Below are positions 4,342 to 60,148 of a stretch of DNA of 64,000 bases, one piece after another (positions within the stretch are counted from its first letter, which is position 1; each line of letters starts with the position of its first letter). The notes beneath the pieces were generated by a model, which worked only from the letters and a program-made list of their open reading frames with translations, did no database searches and was not told the origin of the DNA. The position numbers were made by a program, and so were the translations under genes. The stretch comes from Octopus vulgaris (Eukaryota), in assembly GCA_951406725.2 (NCBI GenBank), contig OX597824.1, forward strand, positions 58,776,001 through 58,840,000, written 5' to 3'.

Positions 4342-4437
<96 letters not shown>

Positions 4438-6600
4438 TCACTGCCTGGAATCGAACTTGGAATTTTGGTGTTAGTAGCCCAAGCTTTTAATCACTACGCT
4501 ATATGCCCGTGGGCATATGGCGTAGTGTGTATTTTGTGTTTGAGCACGTTCCTTTTTAACTTTTGTAACACACGTATCCCGAACTAATAATTAAAATGGC
4601 CATTTTGTTTGGAAAAAAGGATATTTCAAATTTTCCCTTTGCACAAATGTTTAGATGCTTACCAACCTTGAAATTCCTAAGTGATTGAATCTTTAGTTTG
4701 TTGCTTATGCACGTTTACACGACTGGTTAGTTTTGTCCCTGTTTCTCCAATGTAGTTCTCATTGCACTGTGTAGATAAGATTTTTTGTTGCAATTCATGC
4801 TTAGATTCCCATTCTTGAAATTTGTGTTTGTTCCTTGCTCACTTATTTCATATGTCCCACAACGAAGGTCACCACAGTTTATTACTTGTAGTGCTTCTTT
4901 CTCCGATGTGAATCTCGCCTTTGTTAGAAGTCTCTTGAGATTTGGTGTTTGTCTTCAGGTGTTTGTAATTTTTGATTTGTGATTTTTTAATTATTTGTCG
5001 GAGATTTGATGACTGATGTAGATTTGAGAGGTATCGTTTGGCTGAATGTAGGATGTTGTGACTCCTAGGATTATGGGTGACTACAAATAAAGTATTTATA
5101 ATTGCATTTCCTCTTAGCTGAGTATTTCTCCGTGGGGTACAAATCGGTATTTCATTTGCTTTTTTTATGGCATGATCTATTAACTTCTGTGGGGTATTTC
5201 TGTTTTCGAAGGAACATACTTCGTTCTATTAGTCGTTTCTGTCATTTATTGCTATCAGTAACTATTGTGCACATACGTCTTGCCATATGGAATAGTATGA
5301 TCCTTTTTGCATAGGAAGGGTGGCAAGATCCAAAACCTAAATAGTGATGTGTGTCTGTCCTTATCGGTCATAACTGTCTCATTTTCTTTAATTATCAGAA
5401 TGTCCAGGAAAGAAGTTACGTTTCATTCATTTTCATTGTGAACTGATCGATTTATGAATGCTCTCCATATTTTTGTTCCGAAATATGAAGCAGTGATCCA
5501 AGAATCTTTCCTAGTTTCCTATTAAATAGGACTGGAAATATTGATCAAATATGATTCCATGTAGCGTATTTTTTCCAGGAATCCCATTACCAGTATCGTA
5601 TACCCATTGCCATGCCTTCTATTTATAGATAATATCGATTATCAAAGAAGTACTTTTTTTCTAGAGACAATTGTAATCCTTTAAGTATAGCCTGTTTTGA
5701 GGATCTCTCCTGAACCCTTAATTCTAATTTCTGGGGGATATTTGTATAGAAACTGGTTATACTGAAACCAACCAGGTTCGTCTTTTTATTTACTTCTTCT
5801 AGGACTTGGTTTAGGAATTACGTTTCATCCTTGATGAAACTATTTGCATATTCGTTTCAATATTATGTCAAGAAAATTGCTTACTCACTGGGTGCTAGAT
5901 GTTGGCCCTGCAACAATACAACATAATTTACGTTCAAATAGTTTAGGAATTTTTAAATAATGCATGGAGGTCTTTTAAACCGTTATTGATTGTTTATGGG
6001 GTTTTTTAGTAACCCATAAAAGTTATTTGTTTATTTCTTATCTAAAATTAGTGAGGTAATCCCAACCTCTTTTTCGTTCAGTCATTTTTCAATTTGTTCT
6101 TTAATTTACCAATTTTATTCATGGTTTATTTATCGGCATTGATTTCTAATTTTTGTAGTAATATTGGTCATTTAGTTGTTTTAAAACCATTTATTTTTCA
6201 TGGGTCTTGTCCTCCTTTGTCAGCTTCTTTAATGACTATAGAGTAAAATTCCTGTAGACATTTTAATACATTTTGTTCTTCATTTTGTAATGTTTTCTTT
6301 TGTACGGGTTTTGGAATGTTCGAGCTTACTTATATTTTCGGAGGTATTATGTATTCTTCTAAGTACTTATTGCTGTTCATTGAAAGTTTTTAACTAGTTC
6401 TGCTTTTCATAAATGATGGATCTGCGTTGTTTGCTTTTAGAAGAATGCATGAAGATGAAATCTCCTGCAAAATTCCTAAAACTAATAAGAAGCGTGAAAG
6501 TGCACAAACAGTAAATTAAAGACTCTTTTTAGATTTCTAAATGTTCCATACAGTGAACATCTAAACATTTGTTTAAGTTAGAAATGAGGGTATTAGTTCT
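4070..6600 (-). mobile_element. Penelope-like retroelement, degenerate RT + GIY-YIG with 3' HHR region
   Basis: Minus-strand remnants IVAGPTSSTQ..SNFLDIIL, LVGFSITSFYTNIP, TDTHHYLGFGSCHP, MARRMCTIV, CNENYIGETGTKL; decayed HHR at 4228-4274; 5' boundary approximate. Confidence 0.85.
4434..4508 (-). promoter_or_regulatory. tRNA(Arg)-like segment with Pol III A/B boxes
   Basis: Minus strand gggcataTAGCGTAGTGAttaa...ctactaa...aaaattccAAGTTCGATTCCaggcagtgacctg. Confidence 0.65.
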
Positions 6601-21289: not shown

Positions 21290-24200
21290 TTCACAGAAGA
21301 CAGTATCGGAAATATGACTAGAAAGATAAGCACTTGAAAAGCAGCATGACCTGATGGTGCTCAGGGATTTTGGATAAAAAAGTTCCTTAGTTGCCATGAA
21401 TTGATCGCAGAACATTTTAAAACCCCAAATTTCGCAACTCTAACCAAAACCTGAAACTAATTGGTAAAATCCGCCTTGCACTTAAGGATATAATTTCAGC
21501 TAATGATGTTGATATTACATATATCAACCACCTGTGCTATGCATCCGCGAAAATGTCAACGATTCTATGTGGTGAAAAGATTGCATAACGACAACATTCC
21601 CAAACAAAGCCAACTTGGCAAGAGCGTATTCAACACCAAATTCAGCTACTTAGGTCTGACATAGAATGTTTAAAAGAAACCTTAATTTTGACAAGACTAT
21701 CAAACCAACAAAATTCTGAAAATTAAAAAAAAAATATATGAAAACCATACTGGACATCGATACCACCATAGAAACTATCAAGCAAAAAGTATGTGCTAAA
21801 GCTGTCCGCATAGCAAGGTATGAAAGCGGGTTAGATTCTTCAAGGACAACAACACGTTCAAAAATAACCCCAAAATTTTTTATAGGAATGTAGGGAAAAT
21901 ACCAGTTACAGTAAAGTCTGTCCCATCAAAAGAAGTGCAGGAATTTTAGAATAAAATTTGGGCGGAAGAAAAAAGACACAATGAAAATGCCCCTTGGATT
22001 GAATATCTACAGACGAGAAAAAATGGGAGGGTATCAAGGTAGAGGATGCAAGATCTGTTTTCGGGAAGTCAAGTAAATGGAAGTCACCAGGAAAGGATAA
22101 AATTTCTAACTTCTGGCTGGATGCCTTCCCAGAGAGTCATGAACTGCTAACACTTTACAACAATGTTTTGCAACAACCTAATATGATTCCCACTTGGATA
22201 GTTAATGGTATTACATTCCTACTTCCAAGAAATGAAGAAGCAAATGAACCAAAAAATTACAGACCATAATCTGCTTAACATCAATGTATAAAATACTAAC
22301 ATCTGTCTTGACTGCACGACCTATAGTTTTTTAATAAAAAGTGATGCATTCTTTAATGAGCAAAAGAATGTAAACGTGGGCCCCATCAGCTACACATCAA
22401 TAAGATGATCTTGGAAGGTTGTCACAAACGACACAAAAACTTGTAAAATAGCACCTACTCTGTGAAACTTCTTGTCTGAAAATATGAGATCATGGAGAAT
22501 CACACTGACTTTGAACAGTGACAATGAATCTCTTAATGCTGGAGGTGTAATAATTTCATGTGGTATTTTCCAGGGTAACTCTCTATCACCACACTTCTTA
22601 TGTCTAACATTAATACCGCTCTCGAAATTGCTCGATGATGTACAATATGGCTATAAAATGTTTGATGAAAATATAAATCATCTCTTTTAGATGGATGATG
22701 TAACGCATTTTGCAACAAAATGTCCAACAACTACAGGGCTTACTAGCAATCGTTAAACAATTCAGTGGTGAAATCAGGATGCAATTTGGCCTCGATAAAT
22801 GTGCAAAAGCTACTTTTATCAAAGGAAAAAATGACAGAAACATCAAACGTTAATCTTGAATGTCATAAAGGAGTTAGAACCAGCGGAGAGCTACAATTAC
22901 CTAGGGGTATTTGAAGGTGATGAAATCAAAATTCAATGATGAGGGAAAGGATTAGAAGAGAATGTTATCGCAGGTAGGGGCAATACTCAAGACAGAGCTG
23001 AATGCAAGAAGCAGGATCGAAGCGATCAATACTTTGACCATTCCAATCGTGACTTACAGTTTCAATATCATTAATTGGTCAATTACTGAAATATGTAATC
23101 TTGACAGAAAAATACTAAAATTGTTGACAATGCATAAAATGCACTACCCGAAGGCAGATATAGAGCGAATTCACCTGCCAAGAAAAGATGGTGGCCGTGG
23201 ACTTTTACAAATGGAACTAACAATGAAGATTGCTACAATTGGCCTCAACACCTACCTGAAAAACTCTGATGACTGGACGTTAAAATTTGTTTTAAAGCAT
23301 GAAAACAAGAAATCATCATACTCAGTAACAAAACGCAAAAGAATATCTAAGTGAATTCCAAATACAACAAATCCCAGAATGAGACGTACTGGAAACAAAC
23401 ACAGAAAAAGCTAAACGTATGAAAACCCATGCTAGAACTGCTGCTTTAGATATTCTTACTAATAAATGGCAAGAAAAACCTCTCAGTGGCAAATACCCAA
23501 AGAGAGCTAATAAGGCCGATGTTGACAAAGCCCTTACCCATCAATGGTTAGTGTATTCTGGCTTAAAATCAGAAACAGAATGGTTTATCATAGCAGCCCA
23601 TATCAATGCCTCCCTATAAGGAGCTATCAGGCCAACATATCAAAGAACGGCAGTAGCCCAACATATCATGTATGTAAACAACAAAATAAAACCATCGATC
23701 ATGTTGTCTCGAAGTGCAGTCTTCTAGCGCCTACAGAGTATCTCAACAGGCATTATAGAGCAGCACAGTATATTCACTGGGTAATTTGCAAAAAACATAG
23801 ACCAAACTTATCATAAAAATTGGTGAGAATATAAAGCATCTCCAGTGCTTGAAAAGGATCACATCTCATTCCTCTGGAACTTCACCGTTCAAACTGACGG
23901 AAAGACTTCAGACAAAAATCATGCCTGCTCATTGATATGACTGTCTCAATCCACATAAATGCATCAGTCAAGACCTACCATAAACTGAGAAAGTATAAAG
24001 ATCTTGAATTAGAAATTGGAAAAAAGTGGAACCTGAAGACTAAAAAATACCTGTGGACATAGGTGCCCTAGGAATGATAGAAAAAGGGGCTGATCCCTAC
24101 CTGGCTCAGATACCTAGAAACCCCAAAATGGCAGAAATTCAAAAGATAGTGCTCACGGGAACTACCCAAATCCTACATAAAATACTGTCTATGTAATCTC

Positions 24201-33594: not shown

Positions 33595-33670
<76 letters not shown>

Positions 33671-34369
33671 ATATGTGTTGGGTATGTTCATAGTACTAAG
33701 CCGACACTGTCTATGGCCACCTGACGTCACTGGATCTACCTCAGAAATTCCTCAGTGTAAGTGTACGTTGAATATATAACAGAAGAGAGAGACGGAATAT
33801 AAAATATATGAGAGACATTATTCCTCACAACGATCATTCAGGCCCATTCTGCATAGCTCTCTCGCGTGTAGGATACTGTACAACTGGTTGTATTGCATCC
33901 CTTGGTGCAGATGCGTCTCTTCAGGTCATGTTATAAGGGATGTCTCCGTAAATAAACTGTTTCACTTTGTTTTAATACACCTTGCTGTTTAGTGACCGTA
34001 GGTTCAAGACGTTGGGCATACCTACCCAATGGCTTAAACCTGTATTTATCAAACCAGAGCGAAACAGAGTTTATTTAACGAGATACCCCTTATATCATCA
34101 CCTGAAGAGACTCCGCTGCACCGAGAGATGCACCACAATCAGTTGTATGTATGTATGTGTGTGTGTATGTATGTATGTATGTAATTGAGCTGTGGCCATG
34201 CTAGGACACTGCCTTGAATGGTTTAGTCGAGCAAACCGACCATAATGCTAATTTTTAAAAATCAACCACTTATTCTATCTGTCTGTCGTGGGTAGCAAAC
34301 ACAAACACTCAGATACATGCCTATATAAATCAATCTATCTGTCTGTTTATATGCATGCATGTATGTATT

Positions 34370-34850
34370 ATGTCTCCTGAAGCTAAAAACAACAGTAACA
34401 CCGTCCTCTATAGGACCACCACATTTAGTTGGCAAATATATTTTACGATTACGTACTGCTTATCTCTCGCTCAGAGATTTAATATATCTTATCTCTCTTT
34501 TTACGAGATCAGCGACAATGTGTCGCTAGAAAAAGGATATAGTATTTTGCGACTGGAATGAGTTCTTTATCAGTAGCCAATGATTAACACACACTGAAGA
34601 CGTGTAACCACTCAGAAACCTGGGTCTGTGTGTATCACGCAAGGCTAGAGATGGGATCAATGACCTCTCTCGCAAATACTAGTCGGACACAGACTGTGTC
34701 GTTGGCCAGCTGGAGGAGATGTCTTACTGGGGCTAAAAACAACAGTAACACTGTCCTCTATAGGACCACACATTTAGTTGGCAAATATATTTTACGATTT
34801 CGTACTGTTACTGTTTATTTCTCGCACAGGGATTTAATATAACTTCTCTC
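34370..34850 (+). mobile_element. Retrozyme-like non-coding unit: 350-nt period, ~125-nt terminal redundancy, one HHR
   Basis: Direct repeats 34370-34497 and 34719-34850; HHR at 34587-34633; several internal stems. Confidence 0.65.
34587..34633 (+). ncRNA. Type I hammerhead ribozyme
   Basis: acacaca-CTGAAGA-cgtgtaaccactca-GAAA-cctggg-TC-tgtgtgt; 7-bp stem I, GUC cleavage triplet; stem II imperfect. Confidence 0.75.
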
Positions 34851-34858
34851 TCTCTCTC

Positions 34859-34903
<45 letters not shown>

Positions 34904-35178
34904 CGTTCTTTTTGTATTTGGTTTGCAAGAATCTTTACGTGAATTCGTGTTATTGAAGTATATTTTATTGTGTCTGGGGAGAGTCATCCTGTTTTAATTG
35001 GTCATTAGTTAACACACTCACCGGTTCGATTTCCACTCATTTCCTTATTTAGTCTTTCTAAATTTTTCGTTGCTTCTTACAACCTCTTCGATAGTCGTTG
35101 ACTCTGTCCGTTATCGAAATTGCGTTCTTTTTGTTTGATTGTGCGCGTATGTGTGCATCAGTGTGCTTGTGTATACAC

Positions 35179-35209
<31 letters not shown>

Positions 35210-35489
35210 TGTATGTATGTATGTATGTATGTATGTATGTATGTGTATGTGTTTGTATGTATGCGTGTGTGTATGCATATATATATATATATATGTATGC
35301 GTGTGAGTACATTTGTATGTATGTCTTCTGCATATTCCTGTGTTTGTGTTTTCATGTTTCTGCGTTTGTGTGTGTGTCTTTGTGTGTGTGCTTATCTGTC
35401 CTTATTAGCTATGTACCTATCTATCTGCATATCTATCTGTTTCTTTACATATCCATTTACCTACACACACACACATGCACACGCACACA

Positions 35490-35603
<114 letters not shown>

Positions 35604-35604
35604 A

Positions 35605-36900
35605 ATGGAGTTTAACACAGGTATAATTCAAATACTTTTACTTCCGACACATTATTCTAAAAGTAAGTGTAAGACTCAAAAATAATTACACTAAAAATAA
35701 GATAAATAGTAGTAAAAATATTTGGTTCATTTTTCCATACGAGAAACAAATTACATCTAATCTCCCATTGCAATTTCGTCAAGCTATTGTTAGGAATTTT
35801 CCAAAGAATTCTTGGTATTACTCTATTATCAATTCACATACGGTTAGGATTGGTTTTTCCAACACAAAAAAATCTCTTACAAATTATTTCTTCACATAAT
35901 AACAACCTGTTAAATATGAATACATTTACTAATACTAACATTAATTTAGCTAATACGATCCATCCCTTTAGAAATATTAATAACAAGGTTATTGTATCTG
36001 AAGTCAATTCCAACAGAATTAAGTTTTTGTCAAGTAACTCTAAAATCAAAAATTCTTTATACCAGTGTATAATCAGTACTCGTAATAAAGTACGATTTTA
36101 CATTGGAAGCACGTCGTTAGAGTTATCTAAAAGAATTTCTATCCATTACTCAACATTTAGGGATAGGAATAAATGTAACAGTACTGGGCTCAGTAAATTA
36201 ATTTGGGACCTAAAAGACCACGATGAACAATTTAATTTAGAATGGTTGATTCTCTAAATCTCGTTACCTTATGACAAAGACAAGGAATTCTGTCTTCTCT
36301 GTAATTCTGAACTATTTTTCATTATTTTTTCTAAACCCCCCTAGTAAACACTGTTATAGAGCGTGCATACCGATGTAAACATTGGCAAAAACACACCTTT
36401 AGTTCATATAAGTAATTTCTGTCATTATATATAATTTAAACATTAATTTTCTTTTTATATTTAACATTCACTAAAAACATATCCCTCCTCTTTCTATAAG
36501 CTACTTCTGACGTTATATCATATAACGTTTTTTCAAACAATATTAATAGCGTTCAGTAAATCACCATACATATCCATCATTTTCTGTTAAAATGTCTTAT
36601 TGACGAGTTTCATTTCTTCACCTCCCTGAAGAGAAGATTACATTGCTTCACACCATTTATTCTTTTGAATAATATCAGTGAAATCTTCGAAACATGTGTC
36701 GGAAGAAAAAGTATTTGAATTACACCTGCGTTAAACTCCATTTATTTATTTATATATTATACAAAAAATTCCACGTAAACCCGAAGTTTCTACCTTTAAA
36801 AACAAGGAGTTACAACCTCTTTACTTGTGTGATTTTTTGCTACCCTGGTAACTCTTTATCTATTTTTCCGTGTTAATTGTTAACGAGGGAAAATACACTC
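35605..36900 (+). mobile_element. 5'-truncated Penelope-like element (GIY-YIG + HHR) inserted in (TA)n
   Basis: IWFIFPY...; ORF 35787-36257 SLYQC...FYIGST...KRISIH...NSTGLSKLIWDLK; then FCLLCNSE; HHR at 36623-36703. Confidence 0.88.
36623..36703 (+). ncRNA. Type I hammerhead ribozyme with long stem II
   Basis: tcc-CTGAAGA-gaagatt...aatcttc-GAAA-catgtg-TC-gga. Confidence 0.8.
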
Positions 36901-37394
36901 ATATATATATATATATGTGTGTATATGTATGTCTGTATATATATGTGAGTGTGTATATGTATATTTATATATACATAAATTAGCCCTCTGAACTTTTTAG
37001 ACCATATTCTAAACTCTCTGATTAAGCCTAGAGGCACACCCAAGTACCCTAATTTTATCTACCAATCATTACAGTACACTGAAAAGATGGAAATAAAATG
37101 TGGGGTACTGTGACCTCTTGGCAAAATCAGCTGTAAGAAATTGATCTTTCTCTCTTCTAGAAATTACTGGGACTTTATATATGTAAAACACAATCTTTAC
37201 ACATGTACATATATTCTCATAATTGTTTAAAATAAATAAATGGACATAATATAATGTCTAACAGTTGATGCATACCACCTATGGATCCCCTCTCCCCTCC
37301 ATTTCCTTCTTGCCGTGTGTATATATATATACATACATCACGCATGTACACACACATACACACATACATATATACATACACACACATGTATAAA

Positions 37395-48207: not shown

Positions 48208-48748
48208 ATGTTTGACTCTTGCTATACATTTGCACAAGCTGGCTCCAAGTCTCACCCATAGACCTCAAGACACAACAAGTTGGAAGTTCATGTTGGTGTT
48301 ATGCCTAGGGTGCCATATATTTGGTTTTGTACTTAGTGTTGTACTAGTGAATGCCTAAAAAAACCATACGAAAATTATGTTTGTTTTAAAACTTGAGATT
48401 ACATAGAAAGTATTTTGCGTAGGATATGAGCAGTTCCCATGAGCACTATCTTTTGAAATTCTGCCAGTTTTGGCTTTCCTGGTATCTGAGTTAGGTAGCA
48501 ATCAGCCCCTTTTGCTGTCATTCCTAGGGCACCTATGACAACAGGTATTGTTTTAGTCTTCAGGTTCCACATTTTACTGATTTCTATTTCCAGATCTTTA
48601 TATTTGCTCAGTTTCTGGTAGGTCTTGACAGATACGTTTATATCGATTGGGACAGTCATATCAATGAGGAGGCATGTTTTTTCTCTGAAGTATTTTACTA
48701 TGATGTCTGGCCTATTCGCGTCTATCTTTCTGTCAGTTTGAATGGTGA
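48208..48748 (-). mobile_element. R4/Dong-like element, 5'-truncated (RLE + 3' UTR)
   Basis: TIQTDRKIDANRPDIIVK...CLLIDMTVP...KYKDLEIE...HILRKILSM*; (AAT)n on its sense strand at both ends. Confidence 0.93.
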
Positions 48749-48864
<116 letters not shown>

Positions 48865-48891
48865 TTAATAATAATAATAATAATAATAATA

Positions 48892-49932
48892 AACAATGAA
48901 GATTGCTACAATTGGCCTAGACACCTACCTGAAAAACTCCGAGGACTGGATGTTAAAACTTGTCTCAAAACATGAAAACAAGAAAGCATCATACTCAGTC
49001 ACAAAACAGGCAAAGGAATATCTAAGTGAATTCCGAATACAACCAATTTCGGAATTAGAGATAGACATACAAGAAACAAGCACAGAAAAAGCTAAGCGCA
49101 TGAAAACCCGTGCCAAAACTGCGGCCTTAGATATTCTGAATAATAAATGGCAAGAAAAACCTCTCTATGGCAAATACCCAAAGAGAGCGAATAATGCAGA
49201 TATTGACAAAGCCCTGACCCATCAATGGCTAATGGCCTCTGGCTTAAAATCTGAAACAGAGGGGTTTATCATAGCATCTCAAGATCAATGCCTACAAACA
49301 AGAAACTACCAGGCCAACATATTAAAGAACGGCAGTAGCCCAACATGTCGTGTATGCCGACAACAAAATGAAACCATTGATCATGTTGTCTCCAAATGCA
49401 GTCTTCTAGCGCCTACAGAGTACCTCAACAGGCATGATAGAGCTGCACAATATATTCACTGGGTAATTTGCAAAAACCTGGATTTGCCCCATGAAAAAAA
49501 CTGGTGGGAACACAATCCACCTCCAATGCTTGAAAATGACCACATCTCACTCCTCTGGAACTTCACCATTCAAACTGACAGGAAGATAGATGCAAATAGG
49601 TCAGACATTATATTGAAAGACTTCAGACAAAGAACATGCCTCCTCATTGATATGACTGTCCCAATCGATATAAACGTATCTGTCAAGACCTACCAAAAAC
49701 TGAGCAAATATAAAGATCTTGAAATAGAAATCAGCAAAATGTGGAAGCTGAAGACTAAAACAATACCTGTTGTCATAGGTGCCCTGGGAATGATAGCGAA
49801 AGGGACTAATTACTACCTAACTCAGATACCAGGAAACCTCAAAATGGCAGAAATTCAAAAGATAGTGCTCATGGGAACTGCTCATATCCTTCGCAAAATA
49901 CTCTCTATGTAATCCCAAGGTTTAAAACAAAC

Positions 49933-50348: not shown

Positions 50349-51188
50349 GAGAGCGAAGGTTTCATCCTGGCTGCTCAAGATCAAAGCCTATTAACCCGGA
50401 ACTACCAGGCCAATGTGATGAAAAATGGATCAGACCCAAAATGCCGATTCTGCAACGACATGATTGAAACAGTGGACCACCTAATCTCTGGATGTAAAGT
50501 CTTAGCACCAGTGGAGTATAAATTAAGACATGACAGAGTTGGCCAATATCTACACTGGCTAATAAGTCGGCATTACAATATCAAAACTGCCGACAAGTGG
50601 TATAATCACCACCCTGAGGCTGTAACTGAAGGAGAAAATGTAACCATTCTGTGGGACTTTCCAGTACATACAGACCGAACCATCAAGGCCAATAAACCAG
50701 ATATTGTTGTGAAAGATCAAAACAATAAAGTTTGCTTATTGATCGACATGAGCATCCCCTGTGATCATAATATCTCAGCGAAAGAGTTTGACAAGCTCAG
50801 AAAATATAATGACCTACTCATTGAAATTGAGAAAATGTGGCATCTCAAGGCGGTTACAATACCAGTGATCGTAGGAGCACTAGGAATGATCAAGAAGGGA
50901 ACCGAAAATTATATGAGAATGATCCCTGGCTTACCATCCCTGCAAGAAGTGCAAAAGATTGTCTTAACTGGTACATCACACGTATTGAGAAGAGCATTGT
51001 CGATGTGAAAACTGTTGCTGCACATGTATTTTAATTTAAGTTAAAAAAAAAAAAAAATTTTTTTAAATGAACGAATTATTGAGTTTGGTTTAATGGCCTA
51101 CCAATATATACTATGAGTTTCTTTGCCCTAGAAGTCGGGAAGACACTCGGCAAGAAATGTAAGCAAATTTGAAAGAAGAAAAAAAAAA
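50349..51188 (+). mobile_element. Second R4/Dong-like family, 5'-truncated, open frame to 51008
   Basis: ESEGFILAAQDQSL...CRFCNDMIETVDHLISGC...RHD...NKPDIVVKD...LIDMSIP; (AAT)n on both sides. Confidence 0.93.
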
Positions 51189-58867: not shown

Positions 58868-60148
58868 AGACGTCGCAGAGTATAAAATATCGTGAGATTG
58901 TTGATCGAAGATATTGTGTCTACCAGGGGCTTCCACTGTCTGTCAAGTCACAAAGACCTTCGACATACAGTACTTTACGCAATATGTGTGCAGTTCCAAG
59001 TAATGCCAACGTTTGCAATACATCTAGATTGTAGGGTAATTTTTATGTTTTTAGGTGGATTTTTTTTTCAGATTGGGTGGTATTGAACCCAATATTATGA
59101 TGACAATAGGGTTAACTTTTATGTTCGAATCTCGTAGCTGCCACATCTTAACGATCTCAATTTATCAACTTTTTATCTTTCTTTCATGATAATATGTTGA
59201 TATCCTGGCACTGCTATGTCGATTATTGGTCATTCTTGTTTGTCTCTCCTAAAAGTTACTATATCCGGCCTTCGGTGCTCTGACACTTTGTCTATCTGGA
59301 AATTAAAGTCCCACAGGACTTTTACCTTCGCCTTTTCCGGTGTATGTTGGGACCAAGCACCTGTAACCTCATATCCATACTTACGGAATAGTAGCCAGTG
59401 GAGGTTTTGGGCTACTTTGTCGTGTCTACGCTTGTATTCTTTCTGCGCAAGACTTTCACAAACACTAACAATATTAGTTACAATTTCGACCCTCTTACTC
59501 ACATTCTGCAGAGATCCGATGCACTTGTTTGTTATATATTCTTTTTCACTGATTTAGTATTCAGCGCCTGGGCCACAATGATTAGGCTTTCAGCATTCTT
59601 TTTTAGGTTACCCTTGTTGAGCCACTTCCATGATGCTTGCTGGTCTTTTAATTTGTTGGTTTCACGGTGGAACTGTCTAATTAACACCATACGGAGTAGG
59701 GTTTCTTCTCTCTTGTTGGCTGTTATTTTTCGGAATTTATGAACACTCAAGTCCATCTTTGTTAACTCATTCTGCACTAGTAGCATACTGTATCAGGTCT
59801 TCTTTGCTGTTTACCAAATATTCTGCTATGCTTCTTCTTTCATTGCTGATGCACTCCCGTACGCTAATCAGCCCACGTCCACCCTTACCTCTCTTCATGG
59901 AGGGCACCATGCATTGTCATTGTCTTTCGGGTAGTGCGATCGAGTTAGTCAATCTCCGCTTGTGTCCATTTCAACCGCCCATATGCTGATGGCAATCACA
60001 AGGTTCCTTGAGTTCATCTTTGATTTCAAGAGAAATTTGAGGCACTTGAAATAAGCAGTGATGACATCGTCTTTCATTTCTTTGTGAAAGATATTGTCCA
60101 GCTCCAGGATACCAAGGTACTTGTACCCACCATCATCCGGGTCTTCCA
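58868..60148 (-). mobile_element. Third R4/Dong-like family, 5'-truncated, degenerate
   Basis: GYKYLGILE, GGRGLISV, ESLIIVAQ, AQKEYKRRHDKVA..LHW, VLWDFNFQIDK...RRPDIV; 3' end runs into (GAT/AAT)n. Confidence 0.9.

Follow-up and report, generated by a model that had tools for sequence, protein, structure and literature searches.

We consider it likely that an insert of about 480 nt, at positions 34370–34853 of a 64,000-nt stretch of Octopus vulgaris DNA (hereafter the window), represents a solo copy, old and decayed, from a many-copy non-coding family that is likely a non-LTR retrozyme and was likely moved by enzymes of Penelope-like elements (PLEs). Given that the locus itself carries neither a tandem of units nor an intact ribozyme, membership of the retrozymes rests on the family and is incomplete.

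Anatomy of the insert

The insert and its 3' flank comprise the following parts.
34370–34498, forward strand: first, partial copy of the unit at the 5' end of the insert, lacking 6 nt that are found in the second copy
34382–34731, forward strand: one 350-nt unit, non-coding, 42% GC and highly self-paired
34719–34853, forward strand: second copy of the repeat at the 3' end of the insert, holding a hairpin at 34753–34766 and a helix between 34741–34750 and 34806–34815
34859–34901, no strand assigned: (TA)n microsatellite flank, the putative insertion target

The direct repeat at a 350-nt period that had been described in an initial annotation of the sequence was present, with GCTAAAAAC at both 34382 and 34732. 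The whole terminal repeat (34370–34498 and 34719–34853, approximately 130 nt) has a period of 349–355 nt, and its two copies are separated by 10 mismatches in 128 aligned bases and by 8 gap columns. As such repeats would have been nearly identical at the time of insertion, this difference suggests that the copy is old. The length of the insert corresponds to about 1.37 units of 350 nt, with one hammerhead motif. The locus thus holds fewer than two hammerhead-bearing units in tandem and would be a solo derivative at most, and no further copy of the unit was found inside the 64-kb window.

The unit had also been described as free of open reading frames, and the two stop-to-stop frames that it contains (84 and 100 amino acids) had no Pfam match at an E value of 0.1. 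In length, coding content, base composition and self-pairing, the unit falls within the range of a retrozyme unit (150–450 nt, non-coding, below 45% GC and highly self-paired). Microsatellites were found on both sides of the insert, at 34144–34183 and 34859–34901, in agreement with the same annotation, and no reverse transcriptase or GIY-YIG frame is attached to it. A short ATGC/ATGT run was read from the sequence at 34350–34369, and no target-site duplication was readable at the flank at 34859–34901. Farther upstream lies a foldback (33879–34147) with 80-nt arms that are 83% complementary and each contain CTGAAGAG. This structure resembles an inverted PLE end, and a complete hammerhead was not found in it.

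Hammerhead motif and folding of the unit

One ribozyme motif is present in the unit.
34587–34633, forward strand: type I hammerhead motif, with a 7-bp stem I, CTGAAGA at 34594–34600, stem II at 34601–34614 and GAAA at 34615–34618

The initial annotation regarded this hammerhead core as complete. The motif was confirmed, whereas its completeness was not: stem II of this copy forms three of five pairs, with mismatches C34601.A34614 and T34603.T34612, and the isolated stem II hairpin has a predicted energy of +1.5 kcal/mol, so that the hammerhead is not intact. The active fold is predicted to lie 10 kcal/mol above the minimum. Stem III consists of 2 bp and a 4-nt loop and is palindromic with the letter that predominates among relatives at 34621, and the predicted cut follows C34626. 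Nothing in the window reached the gathering score of Rfam, and there was no hammerhead among the 21 Rfam matches at E ≤ 10. With stem II broken and only one ribozyme, the suggestion that the insert is an intact retrozyme unit was not supported. Excision of a monomer is impossible from a copy with a single ribozyme, and this copy is predicted to release neither monomers nor RNA circles.

The description of the unit as highly structured was upheld when the monomer was folded as a circle (z score of −3.3, with 1 of 100 shuffled sequences as good). Linear folding gave z scores of −2.6 for the forward strand and −3.8 for the reverse strand, and folding of the reverse strand equal to that of the forward strand counts against the retrozyme reading. 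The stems named earlier were all found in place, and the stem features outside the ribozyme core are as follows.
34511–34527, forward strand: 7-bp hairpin, for which the listed differences within the family lie in the loop (34518 and 34520) or add a C-G pair (34528)
34540–34681, forward strand: long interrupted helix that encloses the hammerhead (34540–34552 with 34670–34681, 34566–34571 with 34650–34655, 34574–34578 with 34643–34647 and 34581–34584 with 34634–34637)
34686–34700, forward strand: 6-bp hairpin, with kindred letters and a G-U variant in the loose ends of a sister group

A many-copy family in sequencing runs

Contigs of four (X1, X10, X15 and X23) of 24 listed sequencing runs were aligned to the insert region at a likeness of at least 80%. 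Twenty of the 24 runs, which came from 12 studies and bore five organism labels, contained some of this region, in no case half of it or more, and no RNA run was listed among them. The numbers of matched contigs in the DNA runs, which include some contigs that lie on the microsatellite flank, were 1,927 for X1 and 1,594 for X10, and these contigs were mostly no more than 95% alike. The hammerhead itself is covered: its majority letter at 34603 was present in 56–67 contigs of each DNA run. The two runs that were taken to be RNA gave 19 and 204 contigs, and X15 had zero cover at 34370–34609; as DNA may be present in both, these counts speak neither for nor against expression. The contigs in the hammerhead itself, together with their divergence, therefore show that the family has many copies, is diverged and occurs in no fewer than two organisms. 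That the unit is multicopy, as the initial annotation supposed, was supported by many diverged relatives in two DNA runs under two organism labels, and many dispersed copies are what a non-LTR retrozyme would be expected to have.

Among the matched contigs, the longest piece of which was 276 nt and thus too short to show two hammerheads, no locus with two hammerheads was found. Scans with family motif patterns returned no loci in collections of viral contigs and of metagenome contigs. Joints at which a contig appeared to go back by 321–350 nt were considered as tandem multimers and rejected: the reference repeats itself, and contigs crossing 34450–34560 or 34700–34800 can be split between its repeats, so that such joints are no evidence of multimers. 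The junction region 34731/34382 was crossed by X1 records covering 34563–34763, 34599–34786 and 34670–34843. Given that independent diverged contigs as well as the joints just described cross this region, the unit-to-unit junction is a trait of the family.

Restoration of stems by majority letters

In the DNA runs, the majority letter is G at 34603 (90–91% of depth), C at 34612 (52% and 77%) and C at 34621 (62–63%). The first two convert the U.U mismatch of stem II into a pair, and the third renders stem III with its loop a perfect palindrome. With these letters, the predicted energy is −5.0 instead of +1.5 kcal/mol for the stem II hairpin and −14.9 instead of −9.8 kcal/mol for the self-duplex of stem III. 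The majority letters thus give the family a canonical type I hammerhead, although helix II apparently retains the C.A mismatch at its base. No majority change at 34601 or 34614 was present among the 40 of 178 rows listed, and the family may therefore keep this mismatch. With the three majority letters in place, the predicted probability of stem II is still at most 0.02 because of a competing helix.

Majority letters read by hand also close mismatches at 34528, 34553, 34573, 34580, 34726 and 34752/34767. Those at 34553, 34573 and 34580 lie beside stems of the helix at 34540–34681, in which the majority letter at 34568 also converts a wobble to a C-G pair, and the letter at 34726, a 99% majority, closes a mismatch in a hairpin at 34712–34727. 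In the hairpin at 34753–34766, the changes are two-sided, with GTCCT/AGGAC in this copy and GTCCC/GGGAC or GACCC/GGGTC in the loose-end letters of relatives, which is beyond what simple decay would give. Majority letters and loose ends together indicate that the stem structure has been kept across the family, as had been anticipated, and lost in this copy.

The effect of majority letters on the circular fold was assessed with the rows listed by the search tool, which itself chose the 40 majority changes (of 178), 33 of them in 34500–34849. Sets of 25, 19 and 16 rows, with majorities above 50, 60 and 70% in both DNA runs, changed the energy of the circular fold by means of −0.46, −0.67 and −0.84 kcal/mol, compared with +0.14 to +0.20 kcal/mol for type-matched random changes drawn from 996 of the 1,050 possible (P = 0.018, 0.014 and 0.005, respectively). 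Four of the 25 majority letters destabilised the circular fold by at least 1 kcal/mol. Such a gain in stability is likewise expected from decay of any paired ancestor or of inverted-repeat DNA.

These results bear on one alternative, a local duplication inside an unrelated repeat that happens to contain a hammerhead-like motif. The absence of an Rfam match and the 10 differences in 128 bases between the two repeats would be compatible with such an origin. A motif combining a 7-bp stem I, CTGAAGA, GAAA and a GUC site was found in none of 200 shuffled windows, however, and relatives repair exactly those pairs that are broken here, with independent diverged contigs crossing the junction region. 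We consider this explanation very improbable, and it has already been largely refuted by the run contigs.

Conserved core and apparent 3' ends

The region between the hammerhead and the 3' end includes a further element.
34705–34747, forward strand: most conserved core, common to far more abundant relatives and holding the hairpin at 34712–34727

Summed contig depth at 34710–34729 was 59,829 in X1 and 252,992 in X10, compared with 1,839 and 748, respectively, at 34590–34609, values by which, according to the caveat of the tool, parts of the unit cannot be ranked. The core reaches 30–300 times the depth of the hammerhead bin in the DNA runs and dominates X15. The loose letters on either side of the core share recognisable homology with the unit, and a far larger sister group is thereby suggested. 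An HDV-like ribozyme at 34705–34747 was also considered and was dropped on inspection by eye, P1/P2 pairing not being seen.

The copy in the window stops at about 34853, and several other copies appear to end at 34838–34845. A joint from 34842 into microsatellite sequence is present in X1 (depth of 198.5) and X23 (22.9), and X15 records match the unit as far as 34838 and 34840 and then continue for 374 and 249 letters that are unlike it. The initial annotation had envisaged freely permuted ends; the few ends seen instead cluster near 34838–34853, which we regard as a hint only.

Another reading is a SINE-like element whose template was linear RNA, either multimeric or read-through, with no circle involved; the hammerhead would only trim the 5' end or be vestigial. 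The summed depth between the hammerhead and the 3' end, 4.2, 4.2 and 7.8 times that over 34510–34609, is what would be expected if copies had a fixed end and were truncated at the 5' side, although divergence of sister groups at this point (loose ends at 34564, 34581 and 34613) could equally produce such steps and the tool warns against ranking parts by depth. The weak base of stem II and the competing helix count in favour of this reading, as does the finding that an anole PLE inserts without hammerhead cleavage (PMC11167929). Helices have been kept around the whole unit, however, including upstream of the cut site, and the tRNA-like head expected of a tRNA-derived SINE was lacking, with ARAGORN identifying 0 tRNA genes in 33600–37000, a search that a decayed head could escape. 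A SINE-like origin therefore appears quite unlikely.

A depth step near 34613–34640 was examined as a possible series of 5' ends at the cut site and rejected, depth having already tripled at 34621. Twenty contigs have hammerhead-like loose letters before 34613, and a sister group with a different stem II explains the step equally well.

It is possible, and we suggest it only tentatively, that these copies belong to a cephalopod retrozyme that is very abundant and so far undescribed, with a 3' end fixed at approximately 215 nt from the cut site. The hyper-conserved 45-nt core (34705–34747) would then be the handle by which the RNA circle is bound by a Penelope-type enzyme and its internal copying begins. 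If so, the core would be the conserved motif that animal retrozymes are said to lack, as they are described in PMC7761336, and the helper enzyme would be directly testable.

Penelope-like elements in the window

Several PLE-like and hammerhead-like features lie elsewhere in the window.
35706–36720, forward strand: 5'-truncated Penelope-like remnant, with a weak GIY-YIG frame and a hammerhead-like motif at 36626
4400–5800, reverse strand: decayed PLE-like reverse transcriptase, Cys-linker and GIY-YIG motifs, read by eye across frameshifts
30409, reverse strand: hammerhead-like motif in which stem I has 6 bp, the stem II region is long and stem III is palindromic; a (TA)n run follows about 20 nt after its end
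3159, reverse strand: minimal hammerhead-like motif with a palindromic stem III
2800, reverse strand: hammerhead-like motif inside a foldback at about 2700–2830

Plausible hammerhead motifs in the 64 kb thus number five (3159, 2800, 30409, 34594 and 36626). The remnant starts 850 nt downstream of the insert, and its hammerhead lies 1.8 kb from it. Its GIY-YIG-like frame at 35706–36416 (Pfam E values of 0.011–0.016, below the cut-off) is followed by a PLE-type hammerhead, and PLEs are thus present in the same genome, as is the case for retrozymes. In the motif at 36626, stem I is 3 bp long, stem II is 7 bp long with an unusually long loop II of 41 nt, and stem III is palindromic. No full-length relative of this neighbouring GIY-YIG piece was found among 15 candidates, and a Pfam search in three frames of 4400–5800 returned nothing. 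The window also contains fragments of one type of non-LTR retrotransposon (22003–23813, 48402–49909, 50349–51005 and 59233–59792), which show weak Pfam matches to zf-RVT and have relatives, up to 82% identical, among records that are unnamed or come from marine invertebrates. A search with one such fragment gave shrimp, hydrozoan and octopus names alike.

A further alternative is that the unit does not belong to an independent retrozyme lineage and is instead a pseudo-LTR, derived from an autonomous PLE of which a partial tandem, truncated at its 5' end, was left behind. PLEs carry type I hammerheads in their pseudo-LTRs, form partial tandems and favour microsatellites (PMC4209133, 10.1101/2021.04.23.441226), and retrozymes of frogs have been described as homologous to pseudo-LTRs, with 24 of 57 families matching known elements, nearly all of them PLEs (10.64898/2026.07.22.740005). 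The clustering of ends near 34840 is in line with such an element, of which a fixed 3' end or a tail of 30–40 nt and an AT-rich or microsatellite target would be expected. In a truncated PLE, however, the repeat should be preceded by the last part of the reading frame, whereas here a full unit runs into itself. The helix sizes of the hammerhead are canonical and not of the PLE type seen at 36626, and comparison of the unit with the window's PLE remnants revealed no similarity (best E value of 0.085). Moreover, unlike sequence follows the match in only 6% and 1% of the aligned DNA contigs, and the 24 loose ends that were listed, of 680, looked by eye like the unit, microsatellite or unique flank. 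We therefore consider a pseudo-LTR origin unlikely.

Proposed origin of the insert

With a decayed solo retrozyme copy as the preferred explanation, we infer source arrays, cleavage, circles, a helper enzyme and a start site as follows. Source loci with at least two units would be transcribed, and the hammerhead would cut after C34626, probably aided by pairing of two palindromic stems III, to yield 350-nt monomers. As in coral, mussel and axolotl, by analogy, these would be circularised by host ligases. A Penelope-type endonuclease would then nick AT-rich microsatellite DNA, and reverse transcriptase would start inside the RNA near 34840–34853, approximately 215 nt past the cut site. Copying would have run for about 480 nt in the present case, through the ribozyme and beyond one full unit, and the copy would have decayed after insertion.

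A run beyond one full unit suggests that the template was either a circle or an uncut multimer. The initial annotation took a 1.3-mer as the mark of a circular template, which is allowed and not forced by the data, an uncut multimer fitting equally. Given that PLEs leave partial tandems and that the anole PLE copies uncut RNA (PMC11167929), a 1.37-mer does not single out a circle.

Comparison with known systems

Retrozymes are already known from corals, mussels, insects and vertebrates, and the importance of a further one is modest. A cephalopod host would add a lineage, and the probable fixed end and conserved core bear on which enzyme mobilises animal retrozymes and on whether circles are the template. 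Penelope elements are described as an abundant family across cephalopods (PMC8967140), and 235 Hammerhead_1 matches were reported for the giant squid genome (PMC6962438). No paper on an octopus or other cephalopod retrozyme was found in the literature searched.

Retrozymes are described as being transcribed from arrays, cleaving themselves and forming circles, with PLE enzymes proposed to copy these into cDNA of more than unit length (PMC7229834, PMC7761336). The unit resembles the metazoan non-LTR retrozymes of PMC7229834 in being a self-paired non-coding sequence of approximately 350 nt and below 45% GC with one canonical type I hammerhead, in a genome with PLEs; mussel units, for example, are 350–390 bp long and below 45% GC. 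The retrozymes described there occur as dimers to long arrays, cleave and circularise, whereas the present locus, known from its sequence, holds 1.37 units and a damaged ribozyme. In the axolotl hammerhead HHR_Amex2, helix III likewise consists of 2 bp and a tetraloop, and helix II starts with a mismatch at its base, which is U.U in axolotl and C.A here; this hammerhead was reported to cleave weakly alone and well as a dimer (PMC7229834).

The solo derivatives of vertebrate retrozymes (10.64898/2026.07.22.740005) are similar to the insert in being dispersed full-length units without a second hammerhead. Such copies are described as common and are counted as offspring that may not transpose. 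In that account, one of nine predicted frog retrozyme dimers cleaved in vitro. The present copy differs from these derivatives in its invertebrate host, and a PLE with a homologous pseudo-LTR was not found.

With the pseudo-LTRs of PLEs (PMC4209133, PMC11167929), the unit shares a type I hammerhead, a palindromic helix III and a partial tandem arrangement; its probable target is likewise AT-rich, and its 3' end, downstream of the hammerhead, may be fixed as well. It differs from the pseudo-LTRs described in PMC4209133 in the absence of an attached reverse transcriptase/GIY-YIG frame and in its longer helix I and shorter helix II. According to the same source, canonical metazoan hammerheads have a helix I of 6 bp, a helix II of 4 bp and a helix III of 1–2 bp with a palindromic loop, whereas minimal PLE hammerheads have a helix II of 7–8 bp and a helix I of 4–5 bp; the geometry of the present motif (helix I of 7 bp and helix II of 4 bp) is canonical and does not match the minimal PLE architecture. 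The anole PLE protein was reported to nick AT-rich DNA and to start copying inside the RNA downstream of the hammerhead, mainly with uncut RNA, hammerhead cleavage being unneeded for insertion (PMC11167929). Its apparent end lies about 85–92 nt past the cut site, compared with approximately 215 nt in the octopus unit.
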